Source: Alphaproteobacteria bacterium
GTDB lineage: Bacteria > Pseudomonadota > Alphaproteobacteria > MPNO01 > UBA830
NCBI GenBank assembly: GCA_964291215.2
Contig: OZ219791.1
Span: forward strand, 1,280,001-1,344,000
Length of the DNA: 64,000 nt
Direction: 5' to 3'
How positions within the stretch are numbered: position 1 is the stretch's first letter; each line of letters opens with the position of its first letter. Shown one piece after another: positions 3,099 to 57,843 of the stretch. The notes beneath the pieces are model-generated. The model ran no database searches, had not been told where the DNA came from, and was given only the letters and a program-made list of their open reading frames with translations. The translations under genes and the position numbers were made by a program.

Positions 3099-4670
3099 GA
3101 GCGCCAGGTTAACTGGTAGGATGTCGCCGGGTGAGAGTCCCGGCAGGAAGAGAGGCTAACCACCACTTCCTCCGTGAACCATGCGTCGTGAGGCGAAGCG
3201 TTGGGGAGCGGCAAGCCGGGCTATTGAGCCACGAGATACTGTGAAACCGGAGTGCCGAGGTCGTGGCCGAAGGCAACACCCTGCGAGCCGCGTTGGTGAG
3301 GGGGGCTTCGCGGGGTCTGAGAACCATGGCCGAAGCAGGGACCTGGGAGGTCTTGCCCCTCTGTCGTAGAGGGGTCGCAGAGGAAATTCCGTAAACCGAT
3401 GATGAACGAGAAGTCAGATTCGGCGTGCAGCGAGTCTAGCTGCTGTACTTGCGGGTGTGAGTCCCGCCGGCGCAATTTCCAGTTTGGCGCCGTAGCATTG
3501 GTTCAGGGGTGACCGTGGACCAGCGAGCTGGGATGTAGAAGCCGTTGTGGGCTGGCTGGAACGCAGTGTCCAGCCGGTTCGGTCAGCCAGGGCGGCGAGC
3601 AAACCGGAGGGCCGTAGCGAAAGCGAACGATTGGATGAAGCCCCGAAATTGATTTCCCACATGAAGCTGATTAGTGGGGTAAACGGGAATGCCAAGGGCC
3701 TGCCGATAGCCCGATGGCCAGAGTCGATGCGGAAGAACTGGAGAGCACGCATCGGGTTCCCCGGTGGTAGAGACGGCGGCAATCCGGGACAGTACAGCGG
3801 TGAAAGATCGGAAGGTGAGGAGGACAGACAGGATGAAGTGACCCTTGAATGTCAAGGACCGCGTCTATAACCAGGACTGGGAAAGGACGCGGAGTCCTCC
3901 TGACTGGCGGATGAGGTCGATTAAGCGTTGACGGGCGGGACAACACAACCCGTCCTGAGCGAGGACCTCAGGGCTCAGGTGGCCTGTGCCGCGGTAGGTC
4001 AACGCCAGTGCTCAGAAACTGGCACCGACCGACAAGACCGCGAGGTCGAAGGACGGAGCAAACGCTCGGAGATGCCGTGGGTACGGTTGGGTCAGCCTTG
4101 ACCATGGCGCGTCCGGCGGAAGGCTCCGCACCGAACTCCAAGTGGGTGCCTGATGCTTGAACCGGGAAAACCGGACGTACGGAATTTTAGGGGGGCTGCT
4201 GGAAACGTGGTCTATGGTAGTTCAGCGACCCCGCCCGCAATCGAAAGAGCGGTGACGGACAAAGCCTCTGCCTACGGATGCGCGCGCCAGCGGCCTACCC
4301 GACCGCAAACCATCCCGGAAACGCGCACCCTGCGGCGGATCAAGGAGGCGCTGCGCAAGCGGTGGCACGACAATCGGCACAAGACGGCCAAGTGGCGAGT
4401 GATCAAAGGCTGCTACTACGCCGTTCCGGGAAGCAGTGAGTCCCTGCAGGGGTTCATATACCAATGCAAACGGCTGCGTGCCCTTCGGCGGCGTTCCCAA
4501 AAGGATCGCACCGAATGGAGGGACATGGACACCCTCATCGAAGCTCACTGGCCTAAGGCCAGCATCCGTGGCCAAACCAGCGCCTTGTCGTCAGGGGAGG
4601 AGCCGGATGCGAACAGCGCAAGTCCGGATCTGTGCGGGGGGACCGGGGAAACCCGGTTCCCTACCGCGAT
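3099..4670 (+). mobile_element. Group II intron, outer (probably class E); RT domains lost, X/maturase remnant kept
   Basis: 5' GAGCGCCAGG (GTGCGCCAGG in the other copies); domain V GAGCCGGATGCG...GTCCGGATCTG at 4600; 3' CCCTACCGCGAT; homologous to 40039-44961. Confidence 0.85.
3425..4303 (+). mobile_element. ORF-less group II intron nested in the outer intron (class F-like long domain VI)
   Basis: Starts GTGCAGCG; domain V/VI-like CGTACGGAATTTTAGGGGGG...GCAATCGAAAGAGCGG; ends CCTACCCGAC; outer-intron homology resumes exactly at 4304. Confidence 0.75.
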
Positions 4671-4706
4671 AGGAGCGCAGCCGCGCGAATTCCCTGAACC
4701 CAAGTT

Positions 4707-5181
4707 CAGACGTCCTGACCTCGGCTTTGATTTCTTCGAATCAGGGTGATACTTCTGGGCTGAGTTTGCGTGCGTTGTCTGACAGTTCGTAGATCATGCG
4801 GAGGCCGGTTCCGGAGCTTCTTCACCGCCCGCTGCACGGTCGCGCGGCTCACGCCGCCTGCAGGTCTCTTTGAGGAACGCAGTGCCTGGCGATCCGCAAC
4901 AACATCGCCGGCCGGTCGCCCTCGTCGTGGCAGGGCTCCATGTTCGAGAAGTAGACGGTCTGTCCGTCGACATCGGCAAGGGAGAAGCACGAGGTTCCGA
5001 TGGCTTCAGGAGGGTGCATCGCGAGCGTGTTCATGGCCGGGAGTATCCAATTACAGGGGTCATGTTATATCGGGCCATCACGCGGCTATGTTGCCAAGCA
5101 AGAACCGGGAAAATCGTTCATTCGTGGCGGAAAAAAGGGGGGCCGGACTGATCAAGTCAACTCACGAGGTCAGAACGTCTG
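4707..5181 (-). mobile_element. Internally deleted IS (HTH transposase fragment) with TIRs and 5-bp TSD
   Basis: TIRs CAGACGTCCTGACCTCG / CGAGGTCAGAACGTCTG; AAGTT at 4702-4706 and 5182-5186; HTH-like VSRATVQRAVKKLR on the minus strand. Confidence 0.75.
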
Positions 5182-5517
5182 AAGTTGGCACTTTTTTGCG
5201 TCAGTTGAAGGGGAAATTTATGCGGCAGCCCCGCTCGATATACTATATCTATGATTTCCTGTCCGGGATGGCCAGTGTGGTGCCAGAATATTGCAGATTC
5301 GCTCGACCTCGCCGCCAAACCCGGTATATCCGGGGCCTTGCCAGCATAAAAGCTTCCAGCCAACATGTTCATCAGGGCAACCAAAACCCACAGCACCGCA
5401 GACGGCAAGTCCGTCCACAGCCACCGGCCTTTCAACGAACCATGATCGAGTCTTCGTTCATGAGGCCTTATATAGTGGCCCATGAGAATTGGCTTTCGAC
5501 ATCTATCCACGACGACG

Positions 5518-6544
5518 GTTGATTGGCTGAAGGTGGCGTCGGTTGCCGAGGGCAGCACGCCCTGGCGCAGGGATTGTGCGAGCGCGAGGACTGGTGCAAC
5601 GCGAAGGGCGAACTGTGCCTTACCGCGTGCGGCCCTGCCTGATCTTGCCTCGGCGCTCGGCATCGTCCTTCCTGCACCAAGGCCTCATGGCCTCGACACC
5701 CTTGAGCGGGACTATCCCGACAAGCCACTCGCATGTTCTCCGGAGGAGCTTGGCGAGGTCACCGTGGAGCTGGTCGGCGAGGACAAGCGCTTGGCGATGA
5801 TGGCGACCTGGCATCCCAAAGGCGAGGCGCCCGGATGAGCTACCGGATCACCTCGTCGCGCTACGGCCGCCTCGGCGGCCTGGTGTTCCGTGCGGCCAAT
5901 TGGCATCAGAAGGCGCGCGACGACTTCTGGTCCCGGGGAGCGCGTGACGTCCACCTCGGCAAGGTCGTCAACAACGCTCGCTTGCTGATACTTCCGTCGG
6001 TGAATGTTCCGGAGCTGGCCTCCCGCGTCCTGGCCTGCCGGCGGCTTGCTGCGGACTGAGAAGTGACGCCGATTCTGGCCTACGCCCATGTGAGCCCCGA
6101 AGACACCGGCACGAGCTGCAGGGCGGCAGGCCGGGAGCGTTGTGAGAAGATGACCTCGGGTCGACCTCCCGGGGCCACCGGCCAGGGCGTGCGGTGTGGA
6201 TGAAGCCCCTGGCTTGGCAAGACGTGTCGTGCCGGCAGCGTGTCATGGGCCAGGCGGCACCCCTTGTTGGCGATGACAACCGGGCGATGAGGGAGTACAG
6301 CCGCAGCAACCACGGTGACGTGCGCATCTGCGACCGCCTTGTCACCATGGGCGTGGAACGATCGTCCCGGAGAGATCCTGCCGGTGATCTTCCCCGACGG
6401 GGCGGAAAAGAAGGCGGCCTGCCGTCTGTTGTCGAACCCCGAGGTGACCATATCCTCGAGGGGCATCAGGAAGCGATGGTGGAGCGCTGCCGTCCGCAGC
6501 GCCGGATCCTTGCCATCCAGGACACGACGTTCCTGAATTACAAT
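5518..6544 (+). mobile_element. IS4-family (Tn5-like, DUF4338-fused) transposase 5' remnant
   Basis: Frameshifted fragments ALAQGLCEREDW, VVNNARLLILP and LPVIFP..AEKKAACRLLSNP..ILAIQDTTFLNY; paralogous to 11623-13578. Confidence 0.75.
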
Positions 6545-7856
6545 GGGTGCAGTTTTCGTATGGCGAATGCAAGCCATTGATTTAACGCGGTTGTGTGGTT
6601 ACGAAGCAGCGGCGAAAACGGGTTTTCGTGACAATCGCCCGTTTCAGGACAGGATTTTGTCACGGGCCGAGCGGTGGAGGTGGGAACGCTCTGCACCGCA
6701 AGATGCGAGATGATATTGGAGACAATCCACAGCATCAGGAGCGCTCCCATGTCAGTTTCGCAGCCTTCCGCGTCGATCGATATTTCCGGCTTGCCGCCTC
6801 GGGTTGTCGAGGCGGTCACGCAGATAACCGCAGTTTGTCATCAGCAACTCGGTTCGCAGCGCTCTGCCGAGGCCTTTGAGGAAACGGAGCGGCGGGTGCG
6901 TGAGAGCGTGTACGCGCTGCGAGATCCCGGGTGCCGAGGCCCGGGACGACGGTGCGCCCCGGATCGAGCGGGACGGGCAGAGATGGGGCGCCGAAGACGA
7001 TCATGACCTCGCCCGATGACCTTTCGGCGTGCCGCACCGGCGCGCGCTGCCGGTCGCTGATGCCGGTGGACGAAAGCCTCGTCGACGACTACCTGACACG
7101 GCCGGCGGCTTGGGCTGATGATGATCGGCCACTGCACGGCGCGGGAAGCGGAGGCGTTCTTCGGCAAGCTCGGCGCCATGACGCCAGCACCTTGTAGCGC
7201 CTGACCATGCAGGAGCGCTGGGAAAGTCTCGGCCCCGACATCCGGGAAGCGGAGGACATCCCGCAGGATGCAGTCACCGCCTCGCTGGACGGCGTCATGG
7301 TGGCGCTGCGGGCCGGCGAGGGCGGCCGTTCCGAAGCCTGCTGGCGGCGAGGGCGGCCTGTGGCACGGTCTCCTTCCACGACGGTGAGCGCCTGAAGACC
7401 GTCTGTCTCGGCCGCATGCCCGAGGGCCGAAAGTGCACACTGAAGGCGCAGCTCGCAAGCGAAGTCGCGCATATCAGACAGAGGCGTCCCGAGATCAGCG
7501 CCGCCGCCGACAACTGGACCTTCCTCGGGGGTCTTGAACCCGAAACCGAGGTGATCGACTTGCCTGCGAGCATCTGCGCGTGGCGGCCGACCATGCAGCG
7601 GCGCCCCACTGGTTCGAGAAGTACCGCGAGATCCTGCGTCACGATCCCTGCGGCATCGACAGGGTGATCCGGGCGCTGCGCCACCTTCCGCGCCCTGCTC
7701 GAATCCGGCCGCTTCGAGAGCGCGTGGACGGTCATGATCGGTGCAGACGACGCACCAGCCAACGACAACATCAGCCCAAATCACACCCCGGCACTGGCCG
7801 CATGAGATGAACAAATGGTACTGAGCCTGCAACTGTGCCATACGAAACTCTCACCC
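6545..7856 (+). mobile_element. ISKra4-family element, degenerate
   Basis: TIRs GGGTGCAGTTTTCGTATGGC / GCCATACGAAACTCTCACCC; fragments SLDGVMV, ADNWTFL and WFEKYREILR; same ends at 39519 and 46449. Confidence 0.8.
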
Positions 7857-8317
7857 GCGCGAGACCTGCCACAGGATCAACAAGAGCGCATCCAGGACCC
7901 TGAACGAGGCCGGGCGCAAGCGCTACCGGACCATCCTGACCCGGGGGGCGAAGGAACTGCCTGAAATCCCGCCCCGACAGAAAGGAAAACGCGGACCGAT
8001 CGCGAACGCGCACAACCTCCAGGAGCGTCTCGCAAGGCATGAAGAGTCCGTCCTGCGCTTCATGAGCGATCCGGACGTCAGCTTCACCAACAACACCGGC
8101 GAGCAGAAAATCCGGATGGCAAAGGTCAAGGTGTCCGGATGCTTCCGAACCCCGCTCTAGCCGAGGCCTGGTGCCGAAGCTCAAGCTATCTCACCTCCAT
8201 GGCCGCACTCGGCTACAGCCCGCTTGTCGCCATCCGGATCGCACTCGCCGGAAACGCCGCCGACATGATCAAAATGCACAACGCCAAACCCGCCTCTGCG
8301 GAGGGGTGAGGAGATAC
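7857..8317 (+). mobile_element. IS66-family 3' remnant with right end
   Basis: AHNL.ERL..HEESVLRFMSDPDVSFTNN.GEQKIRMAKVK.SGCFR; ends GGGGTGAGGAGATAC. Confidence 0.85.
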
Positions 8318-8582
8318 CCCGACGCCAGGAAAGATCCGGCGTGCCGGGCGCGGTGCCTGACCGCAATGAGCCGCGTCGGGATTCTCGTGACCTCCCGGAA
8401 ACCGCGCTCCGAGCGGGTCCCGCTTCCAGACGGTACGACGCATGATGTGCCGGCACAACGCGAGAAGAAAACAGACCTTCGGATTGGTCTCGACATGGTG
8501 CGAATGGCGCGCAACGATGCTCTCGATGTGGCCGTGATATTCAGCCAAGATCAGGATTTGGCGGAGCTAGCCCAGGAAGTTC
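8318..8582 (+). pseudogene. NYN/LabA (DUF88) domain fragment
   Basis: REKKTDLRIGLDMVRMA..DVAVIFSQDQDLAEL; truncated on both sides by IS66 ends. Confidence 0.7.
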
Positions 8583-8678
8583 ACACTAACCGAATCGATC
8601 TGCAGTGTCAGATCTCCACGAAAACCCGTTTGTTGCTCTACCCCGACATCAAGCCGAAACCAGGAGGTGAGCAGTTAC
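8583..8678 (-). mobile_element. IS66 left-end remnant
   Basis: Matches ~46104-46198 and ends GGTGAGCAGTTAC. Confidence 0.8.
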
Positions 8679-8895
8679 AACCGAACAAAATAAGCTCGTT
8701 TTTCATGGAGTTTTGTCCATTCCCCGATTGAACTCCGATGCGCAACGGTTCGGGGTATCCATCCGCAGGATAGTGCAGCAAAGCTGGCCGTTTTGGCGCT
8801 CTCCGCCAACAGGGTCCCCAAACACTTCGCGCGGGGACCGTTCGACCGGAGCGTGCTCCGATACCGGGGTCGCCGCGCCGCCGGGAGTTCTCCCG

Positions 8896-10155
8896 CTATC
8901 CCAGCTGCGCCGCCACCGCGTCGTACTCCGCCAGGTCGGCCACCGGGCCGAGTGCGGCGACGACCGGTTTCGACGAGAACACCCGCTCGGCCACGCGGCG
9001 CACGTCTTCGCTTTCGACTGCGTCGATGCGCGCCGCAATGTCGTCGATCGCAATGGTGTGTCCGTGGACCTGCATCTGCATTGCGAGTCTCTCGGCGCGT
9101 GCGGCCATGCTTTCCAGGGACAGGAGTGCGCCCGCCTTGATGAGGGTCCGGGCGCGCGTGATCTCGGACCCGGCCATCGTTTTACTTGCGGCCTGCACCA
9201 GTTCGGCGCCTGCGGCTGTGACGAGTTCGCCGATCTCGTCCGGGCCGGTACCGGCATAGAGCCCGAACAGCCCGCCGTCGAGGTAGCTCGAAGAGAACGT
9301 GTAGACCGCATAGGCTAGGCCGCGCCGTTCTCGCAGCTCCTGGAAAAGACGCGACGACATGCCTCCGCCAAGCGCCGTCGAGAGGACAGCCAGCGGGTAA
9401 TAATCCTCGTCGCCGAACCGGAGTCCCTCGAACCCGACAACCAGATGGACCTGTTCGAGGTCGCGGACCTCGCGCCAGTCGCCGCCTTCATAGCGCGCCG
9501 GACACGGGTATCCCCCGCCAGTGCGCCCGAAGTTGCCGAGGAACCGCTCCGCGAGACTGACGATTCGGTCGTGATCGAGCGCCCCGGCGGCGGCGAGAAT
9601 CATGCGGTCGGCGCCGTAATGGGTGCTGACATAGTCGGTCAGCGCCCGGCGGGGCAGGCCGGATACGATATCGGCGGTGCCGAGGACGGGCCGTCCGAGC
9701 GGTTGCGCAGGAAAGGCTGCCGTCTGGAACTGGTCGAAGATCGTGTCGTCCGGCGTGTCCGCGGCCTGCCTGATCTCCTGAAGGATGACGTTGCGTTCGC
9801 GGTCGATCTCGGCCTCGTCGAAGGTGGAGTTGCAGAGGATGTCGGCGAGAATGTCGAGGGCGACGGAGATGTGCTGCTTGAGAACCGTAGCGTGGTAGAC
9901 GGTGGTCTCCCGCGAGGTGTAGGCGTTCAAATGCCCGCCGATGTCCTCGATCTCGGTCGCTATCCGGAAGGCCGACCGGGTCGAGGTTCCCTTGAACGCC
10001 ATGTGTTCGAGAAAATGGGAAACGCCGTTCTCGGCTTCGACCTCATGGCGGGCCCCGACATCCACCCACAGGCCGAGGGACACGGACTGGACCGTGTCGA
10101 CGCGGTCGGTGACGATGCGTAGCCCGTTCGCGAGTTCTGCCGTCTCGATGCTCAA
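8896..10155 (-). CDS. M16 (pitrilysin/MPP-like) zinc peptidase
   Basis: HFLEHMAFKGT (HxxEH) and LGGGMSSRLFQE; TTG start overlaps the thrC stop. Confidence 0.92.
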   Translation of the reverse strand: MSIETAELANGLRIVTDRVDTVQSVSLGLWVDVGARHEVEAENGVSHFLEHMAFKGTSTRSAFRIATEIEDIGGHLNAYTSRETTVYHATVLKQHISVALDILADILCNSTFDEAEIDRERNVILQEIRQAADTPDDTIFDQFQTAAFPAQPLGRPVLGTADIVSGLPRRALTDYVSTHYGADRMILAAAGALDHDRIVSLAERFLGNFGRTGGGYPCPARYEGGDWREVRDLEQVHLVVGFEGLRFGDEDYYPLAVLSTALGGGMSSRLFQELRERRGLAYAVYTFSSSYLDGGLFGLYAGTGPDEIGELVTAAGAELVQAASKTMAGSEITRARTLIKAGALLSLESMAARAERLAMQMQVHGHTIAIDDIAARIDAVESEDVRRVAERVFSSKPVVAALGPVADLAEYDAVAAQLG

Positions 10156-11555
10156 CTGCCCGCGCCTCCCGACGCGGCTTCGATGAAGTGCTGCACGGCT
10201 CCGAGATCGTTGGGGAGAACGGCAAAGCGTTCCTCGCGCTCGAACAGGTCGGCCATGCGCGCCGGCAGTCCGGGGTGCTGGCCGGTCGCCGATTCGACAG
10301 CCTCCGGAAACTTCGCGGGATGCGCGGTGGCGAGGCACACCATCGGGGTCTCCGGATTGCCGCGGCATCTGCGGGCCGCCGCCCAGCCGATCGCGCTGTG
10401 GGGATCGAGGAGTTCGCCCGTCCGCTCGAAGGCTTCCTTCATGACGCGCAGGGTCTCGGCGTCGTCGAAACGCGCCGCGGCGAATTTTCGACGCGCCTCG
10501 GCGAATCGGGAATCGTCGACCGCGACACTGCCGTGTTCGCGGAAATCGGCCATCCAGCGGCCGACGGCGTCGCCGTCGCCGTCGAACATGTCGTACAGCA
10601 GGCGCTCGAAGTTGCTCGAGATCTGGATGTCCATGCTCGGCGAGATCGTCGGCTCGACGCCGACCAGCGCCATCTCGCCGGTCTCGAAGAACCGGAACAG
10701 GATGTCGTTGCGGTTCGTGCCGATCACCAGCCGGTCCACCGGCAGGCCCGATTTCCAGGCGGCCCAGCCTGCCAAGACGTTGCCGAAATTCCCCGTCGGC
10801 ACCGCGAAGCTGACCGCGCGGTCGGGCGCACCGAGGCGGACCGCGGCGACGACATAGTAGACGATCTGAGCCATGACCCGGGCCCAGTTGATGGAATTGA
10901 CCGCCGACAGCCGGTGGGCGTCGCGAAAGACGGAATCGCCGAACATTGCCTTGACCAGGTCCTGGCAGTCGTCAAAGGTTCCCCGGATCGCAATCGCATG
11001 GACATTGTCGGAGGCGACTGTCGTTATCTGGCGGCGCTGGACGTCGGACACCCGCCCCTCCGGGAAGAGGATGAAGATGTCGAGGTTGGCGCGGTCCCGG
11101 CAGGCCTCGATGGCGGCCGAACCGGTATCGCCCGACGTCGCGCCGACGATCGTCACCCGCTCGCAGCGGCGGGCCAGGATATCGTCGAACATGCGCCCGA
11201 CGAGTTGCAGCGCGTAATCCTTGAATGCCAGCGTCGGGCCGTGGAACAGTTCCATAAGCCAAGTGTTTGCGCCGAGCTGCCTGAGGGGTGCGATGGCGGG
11301 ATGGCCGAAATCCCGGTAGGTGTCGGCCACCATGCGCACGAGGTGGTCGTCGGGGATGGTGCCGTCGACGAAGGGCCGGATGACCCGGCAGGCGATTTCC
11401 GGATAGTCGAGACCGGCCATCGCCCTCAGTTCGGACGGCCCGAACTCCGGCCATTGCGATGGCACGTAGAGGCCGCCATCGTCGGCGAGGCCGGCTAGCA
11501 GGACATCGTCGAAGGCGAGAGCGGGCGAGTTGCCGCGCGTGGAGTTATATTTCAC
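10152..11555 (-). CDS. thrC: Threonine synthase
   Basis: ELFHGPTLAFKD, ATSGDTGSAA, NSINWAR and VPTGNFGN motifs. Confidence 0.97.
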   Translation of the reverse strand: MKYNSTRGNSPALAFDDVLLAGLADDGGLYVPSQWPEFGPSELRAMAGLDYPEIACRVIRPFVDGTIPDDHLVRMVADTYRDFGHPAIAPLRQLGANTWLMELFHGPTLAFKDYALQLVGRMFDDILARRCERVTIVGATSGDTGSAAIEACRDRANLDIFILFPEGRVSDVQRRQITTVASDNVHAIAIRGTFDDCQDLVKAMFGDSVFRDAHRLSAVNSINWARVMAQIVYYVVAAVRLGAPDRAVSFAVPTGNFGNVLAGWAAWKSGLPVDRLVIGTNRNDILFRFFETGEMALVGVEPTISPSMDIQISSNFERLLYDMFDGDGDAVGRWMADFREHGSVAVDDSRFAEARRKFAAARFDDAETLRVMKEAFERTGELLDPHSAIGWAAARRCRGNPETPMVCLATAHPAKFPEAVESATGQHPGLPARMADLFEREERFAVLPNDLGAVQHFIEAASGGAGS

Positions 11556-11622
11556 GAAGGGATCCTCGACCGCGGCGGCCAGTCTAGTCCGACCGTTGTC
11601 CGAGTCAAACCGGACGCGGCCC

Positions 11623-13578: not shown

Positions 13579-13711
13579 ACGCGGCCCCTGCCGCCGGGCG
13601 AAACCTCGCGGGCCGCCGCGTGGCCGGATCCCCGGGGCGCGGCGCAGCAGCGCCGCCGGAGAGAAGCTCTCCTGTGGCGCCTTTTCCCTGTCCGGCCGGT
13701 ATCTGCGGGCC

Positions 13712-14218: not shown

Positions 14219-14320
14219 CGCGGTCTTCTCCTGTCTGATGCCCCGCGAGGGGGTGTTTCAACGACCCGTGCATGCTGCCATGCAGATGTTGCCGGAGTAT
14301 TTCAGGTCGACCGATTTCGG

Positions 14321-14340
14321 ATAACAAATTGTAACGGTGT
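14321..14340. promoter_or_regulatory. Possible OmpR-family direct-repeat operator
   Basis: ATAACAAATT-GTAACGGTGT (10-bp period) in an AT-rich patch of the divergent promoter region. Confidence 0.35.
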
Positions 14341-14431
14341 ACGGAACGCGTCCGTGATCGGCTATGCTCCGTTCCTGCTCCCGGGTCGCTGCCGGGGGAC
14401 GGACCGCAGACGCATCACCGGACGACTCCAC

Positions 14432-16524: not shown

Positions 16525-16695
16525 CCGGGCATCGCGGACCCGTCAGCCAAGGGTGCCGTCGGCGCCGGGGTCGGACGGGTCCGGCCGGCGCAGCGTCCGC
16601 CGCCGGGGAGTTGGGGCCGATTGTCGGCGAGCCCTGCGCCGGTGCTGTCGTCGGGCGAACCGTGGACGCGGCGCCGCGTCCGGGATGACGAGGTC

Positions 16696-18923: not shown

Positions 18924-18959
18924 GGCCGCGCCGCCGGGGACGGCATAGAGAGGCCCGCA

Positions 18960-48287: not shown

Positions 48288-48672
48288 GACAAATTCTGGC
48301 TAGTTTGGCGTATAAGCCCCATGCGGAATGGCGGAGTATCCCGGCGCGACAACGTTGCCGATTGTGTGGAACATGTGGCACAGGGTCCGGGCGGGCAAGT
48401 GTTGTCGGCCAGCCGCGACTCCTTGCCGGCGTTGAGGATGCACGACTTCCCGCGGCATTGACTCGCCCGGTGCAGCCGGACATCGTCAACGTCATCCGAA
48501 ACGTTCATGCCCGGAGCGGGGTCATGGAGCAGATGCAGGGCAAGATCGAACGACGGGGTGGCGATGATCCGGCAAATGGCCGGTGCGGGCGAACGGTCGG
48601 CCTTCAGAGCAGGTTGGCGCGAATGACCTTCGCGCCGGGCGAGGGATCACTGCTGATCTCGGAGAGACTTCG

Positions 48673-50124
48673 GTGACGTCCGTCGATGTCGCCGTCGTGG
48701 GCGGCGGATACACTGGCGCCGTCTTTGCGATCTACCTGTCGCGTCTGGTCGGGCGGCCGCTCGACATCGCGATCGTCGAGCCGCGCAAACGTCCCGGTCG
48801 CGGCGTCGCCTACGATACCGACGATCCCGACCTTCGGCTCAACGCGCCGCTGCCGGTGCATTTCGTCTTCCCGGATGCGCCGGACCATCTGAGCGACTGG
48901 TACGCCGAACAGAACTCCTTGGCGCGCGATCCCGGCGCGCTGGTCGCGGATGGCAGCATCTATATGCGCCGCGGGGATTTCGGACGCTACGTCGAAGAAC
49001 AGCTTCGCGCGCATATCGACGGCAATCCTTCCGGCTCGAGGCTCCGGCATGTCCGATCCCGCGCCTTGGCCGCGCACCGAACGCCCGATGGCTACAGGCT
49101 GGCCTTGGATGACGGGCGGACGCTGTCGGTCGGGCTGACGGTTCTTGCCTCCGGCTACGATGCCCCCCGTGCGCCGCCGCCCTTTGATGGTGCAATCTCC
49201 GGTCATGCCGGGTTCGTTGTCGATCCGTGGAATACCGCTCGGGTCCGGGAAATTCCGGCCGATGCCAGGGTCCTGGTGCTCGGCATGGCGCAAACGGCTG
49301 CGGATGTAATCGCTGTGCTGGTGCGTTCCGGGCACAGGGGATCCATCACGGCGGTCTCGCGTCACGGCCTCTATCCCCGCCGCCGCCCGCCCGCAATTCC
49401 CGGCTCGCCACCGGACGTCATGGAACGCTTGGTTCGGCCGGTTTCCCTGTTCACGGCGGCGCACGGCCGGCACAAAAGCGTGCGCTGCCTGCTTCGGACG
49501 CTGCGGTCCGAAGTGCGCCGGGCCGAGGCCGTGGGCGGCAGTTGGGTCGAGCCCTTCGGCGATTTGAGGGATTCGGTCTGGGAGCTCTGGCCGGCGCTGC
49601 CGCTGGCGGAGAAGCGCCGGTTCTTGCGCCACTTGCGGGCCTGGTACGATGTCTACCGGTTCCAGCTGTCGCCGCAGGTCGACAGCCGCATCGCCGGTGC
49701 CGAGGTCCAAGGACAGGTTTCGTTCGAGGCGGCTTTCTGCATGTCGGCCGCGTCGGAGGATGGCGCCCTGTTGGTCACCCTGCGCCGAAGGGGTGGTCGC
49801 GAGTGCCGCCGCAAGGCGTTTGATGCCGTCGTGAACTGCACCGGGCCAAGCATGCGGCCGGACCGGTCCAACAATCCCCTTGTGGCAAGTCTTGTGGCGT
49901 CCGGCTACGCGGCGCCCCATCCGGCCGGAGTGGGTTTCAGAGTCGACGACGAGTGCCGCGCGATCGGCGCCGATGGGCGCGCGGATCCGCATTTGCGGAT
50001 CGTCGGCCCGTTGACCTATGGCGCGTTCGCTGACCAGCAGGGCGCCGCGTTCATCGCGCTGCGGCTGCACCGAATTATGCCCGGCGTCGTCGCCTCGCTG
50101 AACCCGGTAGGGCGGTTTCGTTGA
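48673..50124 (+). CDS. FAD/NAD(P)-binding protein (COG4529-like)
   Basis: VVGGGYTG, GRGVAY..LN, R.DFGRY, SRHGL.P and VVNCTGP; GTG start after GGAGAG. Confidence 0.82.
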   Translation: MTSVDVAVVGGGYTGAVFAIYLSRLVGRPLDIAIVEPRKRPGRGVAYDTDDPDLRLNAPLPVHFVFPDAPDHLSDWYAEQNSLARDPGALVADGSIYMRRGDFGRYVEEQLRAHIDGNPSGSRLRHVRSRALAAHRTPDGYRLALDDGRTLSVGLTVLASGYDAPRAPPPFDGAISGHAGFVVDPWNTARVREIPADARVLVLGMAQTAADVIAVLVRSGHRGSITAVSRHGLYPRRRPPAIPGSPPDVMERLVRPVSLFTAAHGRHKSVRCLLRTLRSEVRRAEAVGGSWVEPFGDLRDSVWELWPALPLAEKRRFLRHLRAWYDVYRFQLSPQVDSRIAGAEVQGQVSFEAAFCMSAASEDGALLVTLRRRGGRECRRKAFDAVVNCTGPSMRPDRSNNPLVASLVASGYAAPHPAGVGFRVDDECRAIGADGRADPHLRIVGPLTYGAFADQQGAAFIALRLHRIMPGVVASLNPVGRFR

Positions 50125-50235
50125 CGGTGTATCCGTACGGACCGGCGCAGGGTAGGTTTCCGCGGGCAGGACCGGTCCGGCTGGAACCCTTTGATGCGCC
50201 TGGTGGTCTGTCCTCCGCCGGCAAGGGCTGAGCGC

Positions 50236-52083
50236 CACGGTGATCCCACGCTAGGTTTGTTGGAAGGGTCGGTTTCGCTTATTCAGGATGATTCGCATTT
50301 TCGCTGGCTTTTTGTGAAGCGACGTAGTATCCGTTGTCGTGGGGGCAGCGGATTTTTTTGAGACGACTCCGGAGGGTTTTGCGCTCCGGGATGTGGTTGT
50401 GCGCCTTGCGCGGCCTGATGTCGCTGAAATCGTGTCGTTGACCGTATCTTGGTTTCAAGCAGTTTGCCGGTCGAGGTCTGCGTGTTCACCTGGCGCGGGC
50501 GGTGGATTGGTGCTGCGGGCTGGCAGACGGGCGTCCTCAGCTGCGCACCCGTTGGATTGGCTGGCGCCGCGAGGAACAGTTCAGGCGGTTGCCGGGAACA
50601 ACACGAGGTTTGTTGTTCCTGGTGGTCGTTTCCGGGCCTTGCCTCGTTTGCGTTGTCGCGGATGGTGCGGCGTGGCGACTGGGAGGCTGCGTACGGCCAT
50701 CCGTTGCTTGTTGCGGAGTCGTTTGTCTCGCCGACGAAGTTCAGCGGCACCATGTACAAAGCGGCGAACTGGGAGTGCGTTGGCAAGGGCTATGCGCGCG
50801 CCAGCGGGCGCTATACCGACCGGCACGGGGAGGCGAAGGATCTTTACGTGTTTCCGCTGCGTCGCGATGCCTGTCGTCGGCTGCGGGATCGTTCACCGCT
50901 TCCTGTGGCGTGGGAGTTGCGGGCGCCGCTGGTCGGCGCAGGAGTTGCGCTCGATTTATCAGCGGCGCTTTCCGACTTCCGGCGCGCGCAGGGGCACCGC
51001 ATCGCCTCGGTGCTGTGCGTGATTTTGCTGGCTTGCGAACCGGCACGGTGCGGTTGCGGCGGCGCACTACGACGCAGAAGGAGCTGGAGCAGCATGGAAG
51101 AACAGGGACAAGCCGGTTTCCAAATCGACCGTGCACCGGGTGCTGCAGAACACCGACCCGGGATGGATCGAGGATGCGGCGCGCAGCCGCAGGTCGGCAA
51201 CGCGGTCGACGGCAAGCGCATCCGCGGCCGCACCGGCGAGGATCATTACGAGACGGTCTCGCTGGCACGGGACCGGTATGCCGGTTTCGATCCTCAACTA
51301 TAACGACGGGGAGATCGCTGCCGTCCACGCCGCGACGGCGCCGGCCGTCTGCTCACCCTCGACGCGCTCCACACCACCCGCGAGGCTGATCATCGAGACC
51401 CATCGCGCGGACTGATGGTCAAGGGCAACGCACCTTCGAGAGAGCATCAACTGGAAGACCGCCAGCGCTACAACGAAAAGCCCGCGCATGGCCGCCAGCG
51501 CACCATCTTCACCCCGCTGGCGAAGATGATCAACTAGTCAAGCAGATCTTCCGCGTCACCCGGCGCGTCGAATTCAAGAAATCCGGAAAACGGACAACCG
51601 AATACGGCATGACCTCGGTCAAGGCCGAACGCGCCTCGCCGCAACAGCTGCTCGCATGGAATCGCGGACACTGGGTAGTCGAGAGCCATCATCATGTCCG
51701 CGACGCCACCTTCCGCGAAGACGACTCCATGCTCCGAACGCGCCCGCAAACAACGCGATCACCCTCGCAATCATCATCCGCAACAAGCTGCCCAAACCCT
51801 TCAACAGCTTCGTCGACACCACTATGCCGACAAACGCAAGCAGGTCCTGCACGCAATCACAAGACCAGGCTGACCGCGCCTCTCTCCCCGACAGAAACCG
51901 CAAGCCTTCGAGCCCGGCAACCAAACTCGGCAGGCCTCTCGCTCGCCCCGGATACGCCGACCAATCGCGCCCCGCGCCGCAACAGCGCGTCAGCAAATCT
52001 CAAAATCGCAGTCTCGAACGCGTCGACCCGCGCCGCGATCAGGACTCCGATCACATCACATCAACAAGCATGGGATCATCTTG
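50236..52083 (+). mobile_element. ISAs1-family (DUF4338-fused) copy B, both ends, degenerate
   Basis: TIRs CACGGTGATCCCACGC / GCATGGGATCATCTTG; motifs NNTRF, GTMYKAANW, AVDGKRIRG, TLDALHT and RGHW.VE.HHVRD.TFRED. Confidence 0.9.
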
Positions 52084-52170
52084 CAAGCCGGAACCAGGGG
52101 GTGAGCAGTTACGTACTGGGAAAAAGGGATCACGGACTGATCAAGTCAACTCACGAGGTCAGGACCTCTG
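52084..52170. mobile_element. Stacked terminal remnants: IS66 left end plus end of the 4707-5181 element
   Basis: CAAGCCGGAACCAGGGGGTGAGCAGTTAC, then GGACTGATCAAGTCAACTCACGAGGTCAG, which matches ~5144-5173. Confidence 0.8.
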
Positions 52171-52173
52171 AGT

Positions 52174-53880
52174 CTACTCCGTGTCTATCCTCGCTGCGTA
52201 GCCGCCGGCAGCGTGCCCGGTCCCGAAGTGGGCGTTGAAGGTGCCGATCATGCCGTCCGGACGCCCCGGGCCGGAATGGTGATAGCCCTCACCCTGCCAC
52301 TCGCCGGCTTGAGGCATGTCGCCGCCGGGAGCGGCGGAACCCTGGGCAACGCCTTCAACGTCGATGAGGTCTTCGTATTCAGCCGTCCCCTCCTGGAGCG
52401 TAACGCTCCAGTCCGAGCCGACGGCACTCCCCTTGAAGTTGTCGATCTTTCCTTTCAGTTTGGACTTGACGGCGCCAACCACGAACGTCGCGTTGAGCGT
52501 CACATCCGCCGTGAACTGTCCCGACTTTTGCCCCGTATGCGTGCCGGCGGTGTAGGTCTTCAGCACCGACAGGCCAAAGGCCTCGCCCTTGTAGGTGGCG
52601 GTTTTGGCGAGCCCGGCGGTCTCGCTGACATCCCCGCCATAGCCGGCGGGGGCGTGGGCGAAGAGACGAATCCCGACATCCTCGCCGGTCTCATACAGCC
52701 AGTACCCGTAGCGGGCATAGGCTCCATACCGCGTGTAGTGGGCGTCGGTCGCCTTCATCCGGTAGTAGCGCGTTTGATCGCCGCTCTCTTCCCCGAGCCA
52801 CTGGAAAAACAGGTTGCCGGTCAGCTTGCCTTCGTCAACCGTGCAGCTGCCCTGGCAGTGCAGCGTCCCCTTGACCCCCTTGTAATACTGGGTATCGGCC
52901 TTGTTGTTGGGGAATGCGGGAAGCGCCGTCAGGGCCGTTCCATCCGAGCCGGTGAGTACGGAAAGGGGCATCCCGGCAAGGGGCAGGACATCGACATCCA
53001 TGTTGTCGGTGCCGAAGGCCTTCTTGATCAGGTTCCCCGCTCCGGCAATCTGCTCCCAGGTCATGACGTCTTCCGGGAGGCCGCGCAGGTCATACTTGAG
53101 GTAGGCCCTGGAGCGGCCAGTGTTGTCGGTCTGGTCTGGATCGGAAGTGGCGGGGAGGACAACCTTCGTCGGTACAACACCAATAAGATCATCATCGGTA
53201 TCGTCTTCCCTCCGGCTCGTCGTAGCCCCGACCTTCGGTGCGCCGTCGCTCTCGCTGAAAGGCTGCAGCATGTAGAGGACCCCCCGTGCGCCAGAGTAGG
53301 TGCCCTGGTTCCCGGAGGCGTCGGCGTCGCCAGCGGGGGTTTCGTCGGCGCGCGCCTTGATCTTCGCCTCGGTATCGACCCTCCCGGCATAGCCGTTGAT
53401 CGTTCTCAGATACCCCTCGATGAGCTTGATCTCCGCCTCCACTTTCTCGATCGCACTCGCGGCCACTTCTTTTTGCGCCGCGAGGCCGGGCGTGTCGGAC
53501 GACGCGGCGTCCAACTCCTTCTTCGCCTCCTCGGCCTTCATCTTCTCCGCCTTGGCCTCCGCCAGCGCCTTCTCGACCGCCGCCTTCGCGTCCGTTATGA
53601 TCTTGGCGTTGGTCGCGACTACCCCGCTGTCGCCGCCTGTGTTGTAGATGTCAGCTGGGTCCGCCTTCTTGGCCGCGTCAAGCTGCGTTTTCGCTGTCGT
53701 CCTGGCCGTCATGGCCGCCTTTTCGGCCGCCTTGGCGTTGTTGTACCAGTCGTCCGGCGTCATCATCTGCTCCTCACCGCCCATCGCCGTGGCCGGCTTC
53801 TTCGACCCGCCGCCGCAGCTCGCGAGCGCCAAACCCGCAGCGGCCAGCGCCGCCAAGGTCACATATTTCATAGTTCTCAT
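52174..53880 (-). CDS. Surface lipoprotein with coiled-coil stalk and C-terminal TbpB-like beta-barrel
   Basis: Lipobox LASC-GGG; Ala/Lys-rich coil; YGYWL, ATYKGEAFG, FTADVTLNATF, G.IDNF and GTFNAHF..GH.AGGY; AGGAG RBS. Confidence 0.75.
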   Translation of the reverse strand: MRTMKYVTLAALAAAGLALASCGGGSKKPATAMGGEEQMMTPDDWYNNAKAAEKAAMTARTTAKTQLDAAKKADPADIYNTGGDSGVVATNAKIITDAKAAVEKALAEAKAEKMKAEEAKKELDAASSDTPGLAAQKEVAASAIEKVEAEIKLIEGYLRTINGYAGRVDTEAKIKARADETPAGDADASGNQGTYSGARGVLYMLQPFSESDGAPKVGATTSRREDDTDDDLIGVVPTKVVLPATSDPDQTDNTGRSRAYLKYDLRGLPEDVMTWEQIAGAGNLIKKAFGTDNMDVDVLPLAGMPLSVLTGSDGTALTALPAFPNNKADTQYYKGVKGTLHCQGSCTVDEGKLTGNLFFQWLGEESGDQTRYYRMKATDAHYTRYGAYARYGYWLYETGEDVGIRLFAHAPAGYGGDVSETAGLAKTATYKGEAFGLSVLKTYTAGTHTGQKSGQFTADVTLNATFVVGAVKSKLKGKIDNFKGSAVGSDWSVTLQEGTAEYEDLIDVEGVAQGSAAPGGDMPQAGEWQGEGYHHSGPGRPDGMIGTFNAHFGTGHAAGGYAARIDTE

Positions 53881-53916
53881 CGAACTTTTCTCCTTAGGAA
53901 TCTCGCCAAAATGAAT

Positions 53917-53983
53917 TGAAAGCCGCAGACATCATCAACGAGCACCACGACCAATCAGAACCCAACTAGGGGTGGGTAGATAC
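53917..53983 (+). mobile_element. IS66 right-end remnant
   Basis: Reverse complement of ~39802-39865; ends GGGGTGGGTAGATAC. Confidence 0.75.
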
Positions 53984-54462
53984 ACGGAAAGCTGTATTGG
54001 CATCAGTCTGCGCGTAGACAATGAACTGATAAGGGGTTCCGTTCGTCAGGCCCGTTACCGTGTGGCTTCTTGTGCCGGAGTTGGAAGCTGGAATAGCGAT
54101 GGGTGTCCCAGCCCAACGATGTGCGCCGCCATTGATCTTGTACCCCCAACCGGTTAGCCCGCCGCCGGTATACGTCCAGTTCAGCGTCACCTGTCCGTTG
54201 CCCGCCGTGGCGGTGAGGACCGGCGATTGCGCCTGCGCGTATTGGGGCGCGAGGGCGGCGGCCAGCGCGATGAGGAAGAGGGCAGCGAATGCCGCCTTCA
54301 GGAGGCGGGCGGTTCTTTCGAGGGCGCCCACCGGCTCAGCCCCGCGCCCTGACTCTTGAGGGGGGGGGGGGGGGGGGGTACAACGAGTTCGCGCGCGCGT
54401 GAGGCGCTCCGTCCGAAGAGCCGCAGGTCATGCATCCCGACATCGCCCGGCGTCTGCGTCAT
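53984..54462 (-). pseudogene. Secreted fibronectin type III protein, 5' part; frameshifted at poly-C and truncated by an IS66 end
   Basis: Signal ..AQAQ; LTATAGNGQVTLNW..HTVTGLTNGTPYQF; upstream ATG at 54462 with GGAGG RBS is out of frame across C19. Confidence 0.78.
54360..54378. repeat. G19 homopolymer (simple-sequence contingency tract)
   Basis: 19 consecutive G within the 5' coding region of the FN3 gene. Confidence 0.9.
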
Positions 54463-55874
54463 GGCCCCATCCTCCCGTGCCGAATTCCACGCCGCCGCGC
54501 CCGAACGGCCGCAGCGAACCCGTCATCGCAATCTATAACCCGTCCGCTGGCCGGTTTCAAGGCGCGCCGCGCCCGATACACGGCGATCCCACGCCAGGTT
54601 TGTTGGAAGGGTCGGTTTCGCTTGTTTAGGATGATTCGCATTTTCGCAGGCTTTTTGTGAAGCGACGCAGTATCCGTTGTCGTGGAGGCAGCGGATTTTT
54701 TGAGACGACTCCGGAGGGTTTTGCGCTCCGGGATGTGGTTGTGCGCCTTGCGCGGCCTGATGTCGCTAGAATCGTGTCGTTGACCGTATCTTGGTTTCAA
54801 GCAGTTTGCCGGTCGAGGTCTGCGTGTTCACCTGGCGCGGGCGGTGGATTGGTGCTGCGGGCTGGCAGACGGGCGCCCTCGGCTGCGCACCCGTTGGCTG
54901 GCGCCGCGGGGAACAGTTCAGGCGGTTGCCGGGAACAACACGAGGTTTGTTGTTCCTGGTGGTCGTTTCCGGGCCTTGCCTCGTTTGCGTTGTCGCAGAT
55001 GGTGCGGCGGCGACCGGGAGGCTGCCGTTGCTTGTTGCGGAGTCGTTTGTCTTGCCGACGAAGTTCAGCGGCACCATGTACAAGGCGGCGAACCGGGAGT
55101 GCGTTGGCAGGGGCCATGCGCGCGCCAGCGGGCGCCGACTGGGGAGGCGAAGGATCCTTGCGTATTTCCGCTGCGTCGCGATGTCGGCTGCGGGATCGTT
55201 CGCCGCTTCCTGTGGCGTGGGAGTTGCGGGCGCCGCTGGTCGGCGCAGGAGTTGCGCTCGATTTATCAGCGGCGCTTTCCGGCGCGCGCAGGGGCATCGC
55301 CTCGGTGCTGTGCGTGATGGCGCGGCTTGCGAACCGGCGCGGTGGCGCACTACGACGCAGAAGGAGCTGGAGCAGCGTGGAAGAACAGGGACAAGCCGGC
55401 CTCCAAATCGACCGTGCACCGGGTGCTGCAGAACACCGACCCGGGATGGATCGAGGATGCGGCGCGCAGCCGCAGGCCGGCAACGCGGTCGACGGCAAGC
55501 GCACCGGCGAGGATCATTACGAGACGGTCTCGCTGGCCGGTATTCGATCCTCAACTGTCACGACGGGGAGATCGCTGCCGTCCACGCCGCGACGGCGCCG
55601 GCCGGCTGCTCACCCTCGACGCGCTCCATACCACCCGCGAGGCTGATCGTCGAGACCCATCGCGCGGACTGATGGTCAAGGGCAACGCACCTTCGAGAGA
55701 GCATCAACTGGAAGGCCGCCAGCACTACAACGAAAAGCCCGCGCATGGCCGCCAGCGCACCATCTTCACCCCGCTGGCGAAGATGATCAACTAGCAGATC
55801 TTCCGCGTCACCCGGCGCGTCGAATTCAGGAAAACCGAACACGCCATGACCTTATATGACTAGGTTTTGTCTCC

Positions 55875-56115
55875 TTGATGATGAAATCATCCACAGCAGT
55901 TGGGGGCGGGAAAATGTGGATCTGTGGGAGAGCGTCCGGTTTATGGTTGCAGAGAGATTCCGCTCCCCTGAGCGAACATGCACAGGGGATCAAACGATCT
56001 CCGCGGAGGTTGCCGTTTTGACCTTGACAGAGCCGCGACCGAGTGTGGTCGGCCAACCTCCCTTGACGTCCCTCGCATGGATGCCTGGGTTTGAACCCAT
56101 CGTAAGGCGAGGAGC
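55875..56115 (+). ncRNA. Putative IS110 bridge RNA
   Basis: Target loop closed by GGAGGTTG/CAACCTCC contains TGACCT and GACCGAG; donor loop closed by CCTCGC/GCGAGG contains ATGGATGC and GTAAG. The 5' boundary is approximate. Confidence 0.75.
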
Positions 56116-56874
56116 AAGGGACGATGGTCAAGGTAGTAGCAGGGGTCAGCCAGTCTGGACATCTGGCGCATTGTTTTGCGGACGACGCCACGGGCAGGTG
56201 GCTTCGCGGCCTCGGGGTGAGCCGGGTGGTGGGCGACAGGCCGCTATCACCGCAAGGTTCACCAGTGTCTTCATGACCGGGGCTTCGAGGTTATTCTCGT
56301 CAACCCGTTGCGGGCGCTTCGCCGAGGCGCCAACCGCGTCGACGCCAAGATCGGCTGGGCGATCTCGAGCCTGTGGCTCCGCCTTCCTCAAGAGCCTGGA
56401 GGATCTCCTGGTGCCGCGCTTGTCGACGCGTGGCAGATGAGGTAGATGGCGAGACCGTCACAAGGGCCTCGGCGGCCGATCTCGATGATCGCATTGCCGG
56501 CGCGGCGATCAAAGCGGTGATCACCGGTGATTCCGAGCAGAGGTACGCCATCCTGACCTCGATCCCCGGTCCGATGACCGCCGCGGCCCTTCTTTGCTGG
56601 ATGCCCGAACTCGGCAGCGTCGGCAGCCTTGATCGGGGTGGCGCTGATGGCCAACGACCACGGTGCTCGGCACATCCGTGGCGGGCGCCGAAGGCCACGC
56701 GATCTCCTGGCCGCAACCGGCACGCTTCAACGCGGACCTGGTGCGCCTCAAGACTGCCGGCAAGCAAGGTCGCGATTGTCGCCGTGATGCGCAAGCTCTG
56801 GCGAACACCTTGCTGCGACAGCAGCGTTGCTGGTCGACCGAAGCACCGGTGAGTGAGCGAAGGAGACCACCTTC

Positions 56875-57060
56875 ATGGCCCTCACCCCTGCCGAGAGCGC
56901 GATCGGGACTGTCTCGACAGTCTCCCTCTACGACACGACTTGGGAAGAATGTCTGCAGATCATCGTCGAGGCCGACATCGAGGAGATCGAACCGCCTTGG
57001 GACACCTGGAACCCGGACGGTCACGTGCCCGGGGACGGCAAGGTAGCCGCGTTCACGTGA
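56875..57060 (+). CDS. Small acidic hypothetical ORF inside the IS110 right end (possibly eroded)
   Basis: AAGGAG RBS, ATG, 61 aa; family unrecognised. Confidence 0.4.
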   Translation: MALTPAESAIGTVSTVSLYDTTWEECLQIIVEADIEEIEPPWDTWNPDGHVPGDGKVAAFT

Positions 57061-57843
57061 CCAATGGACGGCAACCCGCCGCCGGGACCACAAGCTTCAT
57101 GTCGCCTCGCTCGCAGAGCAAACCCCACACCGCTTGTGGACAACCACAGAAAAAATCACCGCAGACACCCGCAAAAACCTTGCCAAGAAACATGGATGCT
57201 CGGTCGAGCGCGCCTCGCCGCAACAGTTGCTCGCATGGAATCGCGGACACCGGGTAGTCGAGAGCCATCATCATGTCCGCGACACCACCTTCCGCGAAGA
57301 CGACTCCATGCTCCGAACGCGCCCGCAAACAACGCGATCACCCTCGCAATCATCATCCGCAACAAGCTGCCCAAACCCTTCAACAGCTTCGTCGACACCA
57401 CTATGCCGACAAACGCAAGCAGGTCCTGCACGCAATCACAAGACCAGGCTGACCGCGCCTCTCTCCCCGACAGAAACCGCAAGCCTTCGAGCCCGGCAAC
57501 CAAACCCGGCAGGCCTCTCGCTCGCCCCGGATACGCCGACCAATCGCGCCCCGCGCCGCAACAGCGCGTCAGCAAATCTCAAAATCGCAGCCTCGAACGC
57601 GTCGACCCGCGCCGCGATCAGGACTCCGATCACATCACATCAACAAGCATGGGATCACCTTGGCTGAGCGCTCGGCGAGCTTTGCCAAATATCCACGACG
57701 CTGATATAGTTGCGGCACGGAGCGAGGAACGGTAGGCGCGCGGCGTCCCGGATCAGCGCGAAGAGCTTGTGGACTACGATTCCGCGTTTTTGCTCCTGCC
57801 GGTGCGCAGCGAAGCGGAGCAGAGTGTGCAGACGACGGGAGGG

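Follow-up and report, generated by a model that had tools for sequence, protein, structure and literature searches.

What has removed so many short blocks from the insertion sequences (IS) and group II introns of an alphaproteobacterial genome, leaving the host genes beside them intact? The question is raised by a stretch of 64,000 nucleotides, called the window in what follows (C2:1280001-1344000), from a genome of 6.15 Mb with 64% guanine plus cytosine (GC) that is assembled in two contigs, C1 and C2. Self-comparison of this genome assigns 2,155,980 of its 6,154,152 bases (35%) to repeats, and the high-scoring segment pairs (HSPs) of at least 500 bp in that comparison span 85.4 million aligned columns, with 2.72 million mismatches and 1.47 million opened gaps. 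We find that the deletions in the window's mobile elements are real DNA, are derived, are locked in size to 5-7 bp and are nearly unlinked both to each other and to single-nucleotide polymorphisms (SNPs). An interpretation made earlier from the letters of the window, here the sequence-only reading, had described the erosion as confined to repeats with clean host genes, and the latter are indeed long intact open reading frames (ORFs) with full-length Pfam matches, examples being an alkyl sulfatase, an M16 peptidase, ThrC, a two-component pair, Paa genes, TsaD, HemC/D/Y and PolA. The repeat blocks at 2799-8691, 31072-32011, 38835-48295 and 50227-57682 give fragmentary protein-family matches only, to IS4, IS66, ISKra4, IS30 and ISAs1 transposases and to group II intron reverse transcriptase. 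Below, G000 is this genome, G001 and G002 are the relatives that were compared and X1-X3 are sequencing runs from three samples.

The size of the deletions is their most distinctive property. Affine-gap BLAST of the window repeats against the genome gave 992 HSPs with 46,009 mismatches (31,644 transitions vs 14,365 transversions) and 12,296 gaps, and in the IS and group II introns of the window the 5-7 bp class accounts for 8,740 of these pairwise gaps. The counts are 1,316, 465, 285 and 85 for gaps of 1, 2, 3 and 4 bp, rise to 2,029, 3,538 and 3,173 for 5, 6 and 7 bp, and are 347 at 8 bp, 176 at 9 bp and 765 over 11-14 bp. In order to count events rather than pairs, full-length copies were aligned for five families, namely an IS66-like element that we call isA (98 copies), the group II intron (49), IS30 (42), ISAs1 (15) and an element called F5 (44). 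Among the 429 distinct indel events in these alignments 258 are 5-7 bp long, and the peak is present in every family; 39 events are of 1 bp, 16 of 2-4 bp (those of 4 bp numbering 5) and 14 of 8 bp. A density of one short deletion every few tens of base pairs, as the sequence-only reading had it, agrees with the one deleted 5-7 bp site per 43-71 bp that we count in the window copies (38 sites in 1643 bp of intron, 17 in 1200 bp of IS30, 39 in 1848 bp of ISAs1 and 31 in 1354 bp of F5). Its worked examples are there as well, with the long forms at 50968 and 51214 in ISAs1 copy B, where copy C has gaps of 7 bp and 12 bp, and with a 7-nt gap in intron domain V. The lock to 5-7 bp is a new point, missed by that reader. 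Such a spectrum is unusual because bacterial pseudogene indels, in the part of Danneels et al. (2018, PMC6054270) used here, follow a power law in which 1 bp is the commonest size. The open-access literature that we searched contained no account of a signature of 5-7 bp deletions, whether in the IS of bacteria or in symbionts.

The same spectrum recurs in G002, a second species of the genus whose 6.1-Mb genome is a single contig. Pairwise comparison of 12 intron loci there yields 762 gaps, including 118 of 5 bp, 276 of 6 bp and 54 of 7 bp, with 13 at 4 bp and 3 at 8 bp on either side of the peak; the peak is slightly displaced, 6 and 7 bp being about equally common in G000 and 6 bp far above 7 bp in G002. 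Since G002 has the same spectrum, at least two members of the genus, both rich in repeats, possess the signature. In G001 two diverged introns differ by gaps of 1-2 bp only.

Three observations establish that the short forms are deletions and not the long forms insertions. Alignment of the tandem introns of the window to the Rfam covariance model shows 6-7 nt blocks gone from one arm of a helix, with the pairing broken; the long forms are mostly non-repetitive and are not tandem duplicates of their flanks; and reconstructions that retain every long form have longer ORFs, for example 481 amino acids in the intron and 447 in F5. Deletion thus predominates over insertion, as it does in ordinary pseudogene decay. 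Other routes were tried and set aside. As regards outgroups, isA matches the relatives over ∼100-140 bp alone, at 75-78% identity, the ORFs at loci L004 and L005 are uninformative for polarity, and the intact introns of G001 are only 65-73% identical. An intact transposase could not be recovered from the majority consensus of isA, which is broken at every threshold.

How the deletions are distributed among copies is equally unusual. A matrix of 31 polymorphic sites in 98 copies of isA is a mosaic with no nested series. For linkage tests both classes of variant were taken at a minor-allele frequency of at least 15% and a site was scored only where the gap boundaries were exact, although alignment error may still inflate incompatibility somewhat. 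The mean squared correlation, r2, between indels is 0.13-0.16 at every distance, and between SNPs it declines from 0.51 at up to 30 bp to 0.24 at distances above 300 bp. The four-gamete test fails for 58-79% of indel-indel pairs vs 32-66% of SNP-SNP pairs, and in a stricter form, restricted to sites within 5 bp, for 18 of 125 indel-SNP pairs vs 13 of 249 SNP-SNP pairs. Mutual nearest-neighbour copies differ at 276 places by 5-7 bp, and at 274 of these the deletion is shared with other copies; the deletion allele is present in more than 5 copies in 251 cases and is private in 2. Copy pairs with less than 0.3% mismatch already have 66 gaps of 5-7 bp vs 313 mismatches. Near the indels that separate near-identical copies (217 differences) the mismatch rate is 0.005-0.011 vs a background of 0.0037, an excess of ∼0.17 mismatches per event within 30 bp. 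Deletion alleles are often at high frequency, with 102 of 256 sites at 80% or above. Deletions private to one copy number 75 in the alignments, of which 23 are 5-7 bp long, and as these are few and not peaked at 5-7 bp the size peak belongs to the shared deletions. Variants are therefore shared in conflict with the genealogy of the copies, as expected for gene conversion. The non-tree-like sharing proposed from sequence is upheld by the mosaic matrix, the sister-copy differences, the flat linkage and the four-gamete failures, and so is the specific conflict over TCAATC and CCAAGT between the tandem introns and the intron at 3097. The conclusion drawn from it, that deletions are recurrent or spread between diverged copies, is borne out: 5-7 bp indels show almost no linkage either among themselves or with SNPs, whereas linkage among SNPs persists.

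Deletions become ∼12-fold denser as repeats lengthen, and likewise as copies multiply, and they spare host genes, short repeats and a young family. Binned by the length of the repeat island, the number of 5-7 bp gaps per mismatch climbs from 0.013 (up to 250 bp) through 0.036, 0.063, 0.091 and 0.144 to 0.158 (above 2.5 kb), while 1-bp gaps per mismatch stay at 0.10-0.17 across the same bins. By copy depth, in alignments of at least 700 bp, the ratio goes from 0.021 for 1-2 copies to 0.268 for more than 100. Some gaps are split by megablast in these counts. The dependence on length and number of partners that gene conversion entails is hence observed, and it is monotonic but correlational, because low-copy classes include selected paralogs and copy pairs are not independent. 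The statement that every multicopy element is eroded proves too strong. Short non-coding repeats are more diverged (6.7% mismatch), yet their number of 5-7 bp gaps per mismatch is ∼12-fold below that of long elements; two short repeats of ∼190 bp, with 42-90 copies and bounded at 34342-34733, serve as a contrast case, with 15 gaps of 5-6 bp vs 1,856 mismatches in 28,512 aligned columns. A second contrast is the paralog family with a long open frame at 52177-53931, whose ∼20 members are 73-79% identical and whose gaps are described by multiples of three (65 of 3 bp, 14 of 6 bp, 18 of 9 bp and 10 of 15 bp; none of 5 bp, 8 of 7 bp). The third to escape is a clean family of 2.36 kb, found at C1:476940-479301 and at least four other places with 99.4-99.9% identity and no 5-7 bp gaps, which appears to be currently active and to provide a natural control.

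Within the eroded elements the positions of the deletions follow few rules. Many had been described as lying between short direct repeats, and microhomology is in fact enriched, with at least 2 nt at 95 of 256 deletions (37%) vs 18% in the null and at least 3 nt at 53 of 256 vs 6.4%; it is not the rule, however, since 91 of 256 have none at all (53% in the null). The frequency of a deletion among copies is unrelated to microhomology, GC content, block length or distance from the element end. Neither composition nor information content at the boundaries rises above noise, k-mers at a fixed offset within 50 bp on either strand are as in the null, and sequences that match the deleted block, directly or as its reverse complement, are no commoner in the surrounding 40 bp than in the null, so that neither hairpins nor direct repeats are associated with the deletions. 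Deleted blocks do not hold significantly more SNP diversity than the rest (0.043 vs 0.032, p = 0.16). The ends of elements do stand out. In the four DDE-type IS families the overall density predicts ∼20 sites in the terminal 100 columns, and 2 occur there; intron ends are not spared (7 sites within 100 columns vs 7.5 expected), and the tandem introns of the window lie inside a multicopy element. The claim that terminal inverted repeats and target-site duplications are intact is not confirmed in that breadth; the ends of four IS elements were checked and one 8-bp target-site duplication, GAGGCGGC, was seen.

Could these gaps have been produced by the assembly? Three runs from one host organism, representing three samples, contain 62-80% of the words sampled from a test stretch, and contigs built independently from them with another assembler were compared with window positions 38001-58000 and 1-20000, every bin being covered; runs X4 and X6, which gave short, low-depth pieces only, were left out. 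An artefact would predict hundreds of 5-7 bp insertions in the independent contigs. We observe 18 indel places per 20 kb, and among the 12 listed per 20 kb most are of 1-2 bp, with one 5-bp and one 6-bp insertion that both come from other copies. Gapless contig pieces of 170-310 bp run within repeats in which deletion junctions recur at intervals of about 45 bp. Because contigs from three samples reproduce the junctions, a polishing artefact is unlikely. The samples are not equivalent: X1 has 0 differences from the window in unique DNA (pieces of 2,001-5,051 bp), and because of this exact match it may be the source sample and hence not independent, and X3 is a strain ∼1% diverged. Over window positions 339-3031 and 14716-19766, both mostly host DNA, X3 shows 23 gap letters with 35 mismatches and 21 gap letters with 31 mismatches, respectively. 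The cleanness of the 2.36-kb family, with its at least 5 near-identical copies, argues that the assembly is not noisy in repeats as such. An internal control from ribosomal RNA (rRNA) operons was considered and dropped, there being a single operon.

The explanation that we tentatively prefer, at somewhat less than even confidence, is that deletions spread from copy to copy by a homology-dependent exchange that favours the deleted form, that is, by ectopic gene conversion. A heteroduplex would form between diverged copies, SNP mismatches within it would be processed jointly by the intact MutS and MutL, and loops of at least 5 nt would evade MutS and be resolved one by one through a separate short-patch route biased to deletion; a deletion that had arisen once could in this way sweep a family without its flanks. 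Such an exchange fits the flat linkage, the trends with length and copy number and the high frequencies of the deletions. The breadth of the spectrum of private deletions and the difference between the ends of IS and those of introns agree with it as well.

Several findings weigh against it. Flanking SNPs are barely co-converted, which would demand very short tracts or very close donors. Escape from MutS does not predict the sharp drop from 7 to 8 bp, and the 7-bp upper limit points to a putative component that acts as a physical ruler. The frequency of deletions shows no increase from the ends of an element to its middle, the trends with dose are correlational for the reasons given above, and IS ends could equally well be spared if only copies with intact ends keep transposing. 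Deletion-biased gene conversion, one of the candidates named from sequence, therefore keeps its length and copy-number dependence and its high deletion frequencies in its favour and lacks appreciable co-conversion of flanking SNPs; none of the mechanisms then suggested accounts for the size lock.

The size lock would be explained by an enzyme that cuts with a fixed stagger. It is possible, if rather doubtful, that mobile-element DNA is cut recurrently at preferred places with a stagger of 5-7 nt and the overhang trimmed before the ends are rejoined, with the same blocks lost independently in many copies; a nuclease might do this, or a type II topoisomerase in an abortive complex. The narrow size window, slightly different in the two species, resembles the mark of a physical ruler; differences between sister copies at shared sites come with hardly any change in the SNPs beside them, and all four gametes occur even within 5 bp, in the indel-SNP proportions given earlier. 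A precedent is the ID_TOP2alpha signature of human tumours with TOP2A p.K743N, which, in the portion of the report used (PMC8795545), is enriched for 6-8 bp deletions and has 2-4 bp duplications, and is tied to transcription and sequence motifs in human cells. The likeness lies in a narrow deletion size, attached there to a fixed-stagger cutting enzyme. The difference is that its 2-4 bp duplications have no counterpart here, where 2-4 bp events make up 16 of 429, so the combination of 6-8 bp deletions with 2-4 bp duplications that defines the topoisomerase signature is not what we see. Recurrent cutting is further opposed by the lack of a motif, either directly at the boundaries or offset from them by a fixed distance of up to 50 bp, by the lack of any hairpin or direct-repeat association and by deletion frequencies that are unrelated to microhomology or GC content, and it leaves the sparing of host DNA and of short repeats unexplained.

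The gene inventory provides little for a cutter to work with. The genome, rated 99.3% complete, has no match to Ku (PF02735) or to LigD_N (PF13298), and none to the Argonaute Piwi domain (PF02171); MutS and MutL are intact. Two arrays of clustered regularly interspaced short palindromic repeats (CRISPR), each beside a Cas1 gene, hold 111 spacers in total, and 0 of 111 target the genome itself, with four partial matches of 17-21 nt only. Scars of Ku/LigD end joining thus find no support, as neither protein has a match, and the same holds for CRISPR self-targeting, as no spacer matches the eroded elements, and for prokaryotic Argonaute interference, as the Piwi domain has no match. The earlier proposal that targeted breaks are repaired by microhomology joining is left with no recognisable machinery and no motif, and with only modest microhomology. 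The arrays themselves are at C1:574247-581220 (96 repeats of 36 bp, spacers of 34-40 bp, Cas1 in a 599-residue open frame) and C2:2068487-2069582 (17 repeats of 36 bp, spacers of 30 bp).

Comparison with fungi suggests a further way of reading the pattern. Repeat-induced point mutation (RIP) introduces C-to-T transitions during the sexual cycle by means of a cytosine-methyltransferase-like protein. By analogy, a process of this lineage might sense long DNA present in many copies and disable it by removing 5-7 bp blocks, a counterpart of RIP that we regard as doubtful. Its machinery would act by deletion instead of point mutation and would match no known defence system. The two are alike in effect, with long duplicates disabled, single-copy genes spared and a length threshold; they differ in that the lesions here are 5-7 bp deletions in a bacterium, for which the sensing of homology is only hypothetical.

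The patterns might also arise without any targeting, from a genome-wide bias towards 5-7 bp deletions that becomes visible wherever selection is absent, together with mobilisation in trans of defective copies whose ends are intact, by which many copies would inherit old deletions. We consider this unlikely. Selection alone would keep host genes clean, IS ends would be spared if only mobilisable copies multiply, and the multiplication of such copies suits deletions at high frequency (the 102 of 256 sites noted above); moreover, contigs of X3 that are mostly host DNA show 45 gap letters relative to the window, in no more than 6 places outside those listed. Set against this are the short non-coding repeats, which have mismatches enough and are nevertheless ∼12-fold poorer in 5-7 bp gaps per mismatch, and the scaling of density with copy number. 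Simple inheritance of deletions from copy to copy predicts nested patterns linked to SNPs, the opposite of those seen, and private deletions are not peaked at 5-7 bp.

Highly improbable, finally, is an assembly, consensus or polishing artefact limited to repeats, the main alternative of the sequence-only reading, which the independent contigs and the clean multicopy family disfavour: erosion confined to repeats with clean IS ends beside the flanks is what failed short-read polishing would look like, X1 possibly comes from the source sample and the records give no sequencing technology for runs X1-X3, the one weakness left, but contigs from another assembler and three samples, one a ∼1% diverged strain, cross the repeats without gaps, the gaps are of 5-7 bp and not 1 bp, intron ends within repeats are eroded as are elements nested in other repeats, read-level error would strike unique DNA too and there is none in 5,051 bp, and a second species has the same spectrum.

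The preferred exchange between copies can be set beside what is known of related processes. Gene conversion among dispersed repeats likewise moves variants across genealogies, with an effect that grows with homology length and copy number, and the high-frequency deletion alleles here suggest the bias of biased gene conversion; the difference is that usual tracts carry flanking markers, which are hardly carried here, and that SNPs are linked and indels are not. We know of no size-selective, deletion-favouring conversion in bacteria, and found none in the open-access literature searched. A deletional bias in bacteria was reportedly described by Kuo and Ochman in 2009 (PMC2817411). Bacterial pseudogene decay also produces small deletions in non-functional DNA, with microhomology at 43% (in the part of PMC6054270 used) compared with 37% here for at least 2 nt. 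It differs in that, according to the same part of that source, its sizes obey a power law headed by 1 bp and multiples of three are in excess, as against the peak at 5-7 bp, the trough at 2-4 bp, the dependence on length and copy number and the non-tree-like sharing of the present deletions; events of 1 bp are 39 of 429, and decay of that kind would act equally on all unselected DNA, whereas 5-7 bp gaps per mismatch are 0.013 in short vs 0.158 in long islands. IS expansion and decay in host-restricted bacteria is exemplified by Wolbachia (Cerveau et al. 2011, PMC3205602), whose genome, going by the abstract, is similarly loaded with many degraded and nested IS copies; the opening of that abstract mentions neither size-locked deletions nor unlinked sharing of indels.

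Element boundaries in the window were taken from clustered HSP ends. A group II intron remnant at 3097-4670 on the forward strand (the '3099 intron' of the earlier reader) is delimited by repeat boundaries and matches RF02005 at 101 bits. Its ends alone are ∼90% like the tandem introns, its middle part does not align with them and it has its own set of 6-7 nt gaps. Next to it, at 4702-8678, NCBIfam and Pfam fragment matches define a cluster of eroded IS4- and IS66-type remnants, with 82 gaps of 5 bp, 555 of 6 bp and 185 of 7 bp, and 11 and 17 of 4 and 8 bp; a 117-residue frame at 5706-6056 within it is like the Druantia protein DruA (Pfam, E = 3e-9). An eroded repeat of ∼2 kb with ∼10 copies and 72% GC, recognised by repeat depth, lies at 11626-13584 and has 18, 50 and 22 gaps of 5, 6 and 7 bp against the other copies. 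Another eroded block, at 31072-32011, adjoins a transfer RNA gene (32083-32155) and has 100, 75 and 82 gaps of these sizes.

The largest composite structure is isA, with ∼175 copies in the genome, here on the reverse strand in two parts, left at 39802-40039 and right at 44963-46198, placed by boundaries and, for the right part, by alignment of copies. The GAGGCGGC duplication flanks 39802 and 46198, the inverted ends are imperfect and the match to IS66 transposase is weak (18.9 bits). Between the parts, inside this one IS66-like copy, three group II introns stand head to tail on the forward strand: copy 1 at 40040-41682 (RF02005 at 91.5 bits, 6-7 nt blocks lost from helices), copy 2 at 41683-43325 (38 of 68 scorable 5-7 bp sites deleted) and copy 3 at 43326-44962 (aligned to the RF02005 model). 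They are 1643, 1643 and 1637 bp long and differ by ∼9-22 SNPs and 4-8 indels of 5-11 bp, and the array may have originated by local duplication or by repeated homing. The introns at 3097 and at 40040-44962 score 82-101 bits with RF02005 against a cut-off of 49 bits, as expected of group II introns, and their reverse transcriptase fragments match TIGR04416 at 65-90 bits. Genome-wide, 0 of 82 reverse transcriptase matches reach the 300-bit family cut-off, all being broken, and one open frame of 386 residues scores 262 bits.

Beyond isA in window coordinates an ISKra4-type C-terminal fragment (NCBIfam match) and an ISAs1-type fragment occupy 46199-47087, with direct repeats D6, D9 and D13, followed on the reverse strand at 47088-48287 by an IS30-family element of ∼60 copies, which is identified by NCBIfam IS30 fragments and has 17 of 23 scorable sites deleted. 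ISAs1 copy B is at 50236-52083 on the forward strand (39 of 53 scorable sites deleted). Copy C, on the same strand, is split by F5, which has ∼60 copies and is inserted at 55850-57203 with 31 of 46 scorable sites deleted; its left part, at 54579-55849, was recognised by alignment with copy B and is shorter through gaps of 5, 11, 10, 7, 7, 5, 11, 12, 14 and 5 bp, and its right part, at 57204-57662, by direct repeat D11 and boundary peaks. The uneroded paralog at 52177-53931 has 568-residue open frames on both strands with no Pfam or NCBIfam match, and an fn3 fragment adjoins it at 53969-54427. In X3 one contig joins 50225 to 57662, and because the two positions are linked directly that strain is without the 7.4-kb IS cluster 50226-57661, the junction being either an empty site or a clean loss. 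IS110, which the sequence-only reading had listed, did not turn up in scans of the window. The whole genome has a single rRNA operon despite its 6.15 Mb and 35% repeats, and runs that hold small parts of the window carry sponge or marine metagenome labels.

In the usual view bacterial indel spectra fall smoothly from 1 bp and IS decay is passive, and a third of this genome departs from that view; in the literature searched we found no description of erosion of this kind in bacteria. Because related strains and a second affected species exist, the question is testable. If a biased exchange of loops is at work, it would be a new force that silences and shrinks bacterial mobile DNA, and the elements would document, under natural conditions, what becomes of loops too large for MutS. 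If a fixed-stagger cutter is responsible, the deletions would constitute a new mutational signature and possibly a new defence. Either way, the process bears on the later reduction of genomes swollen by IS.

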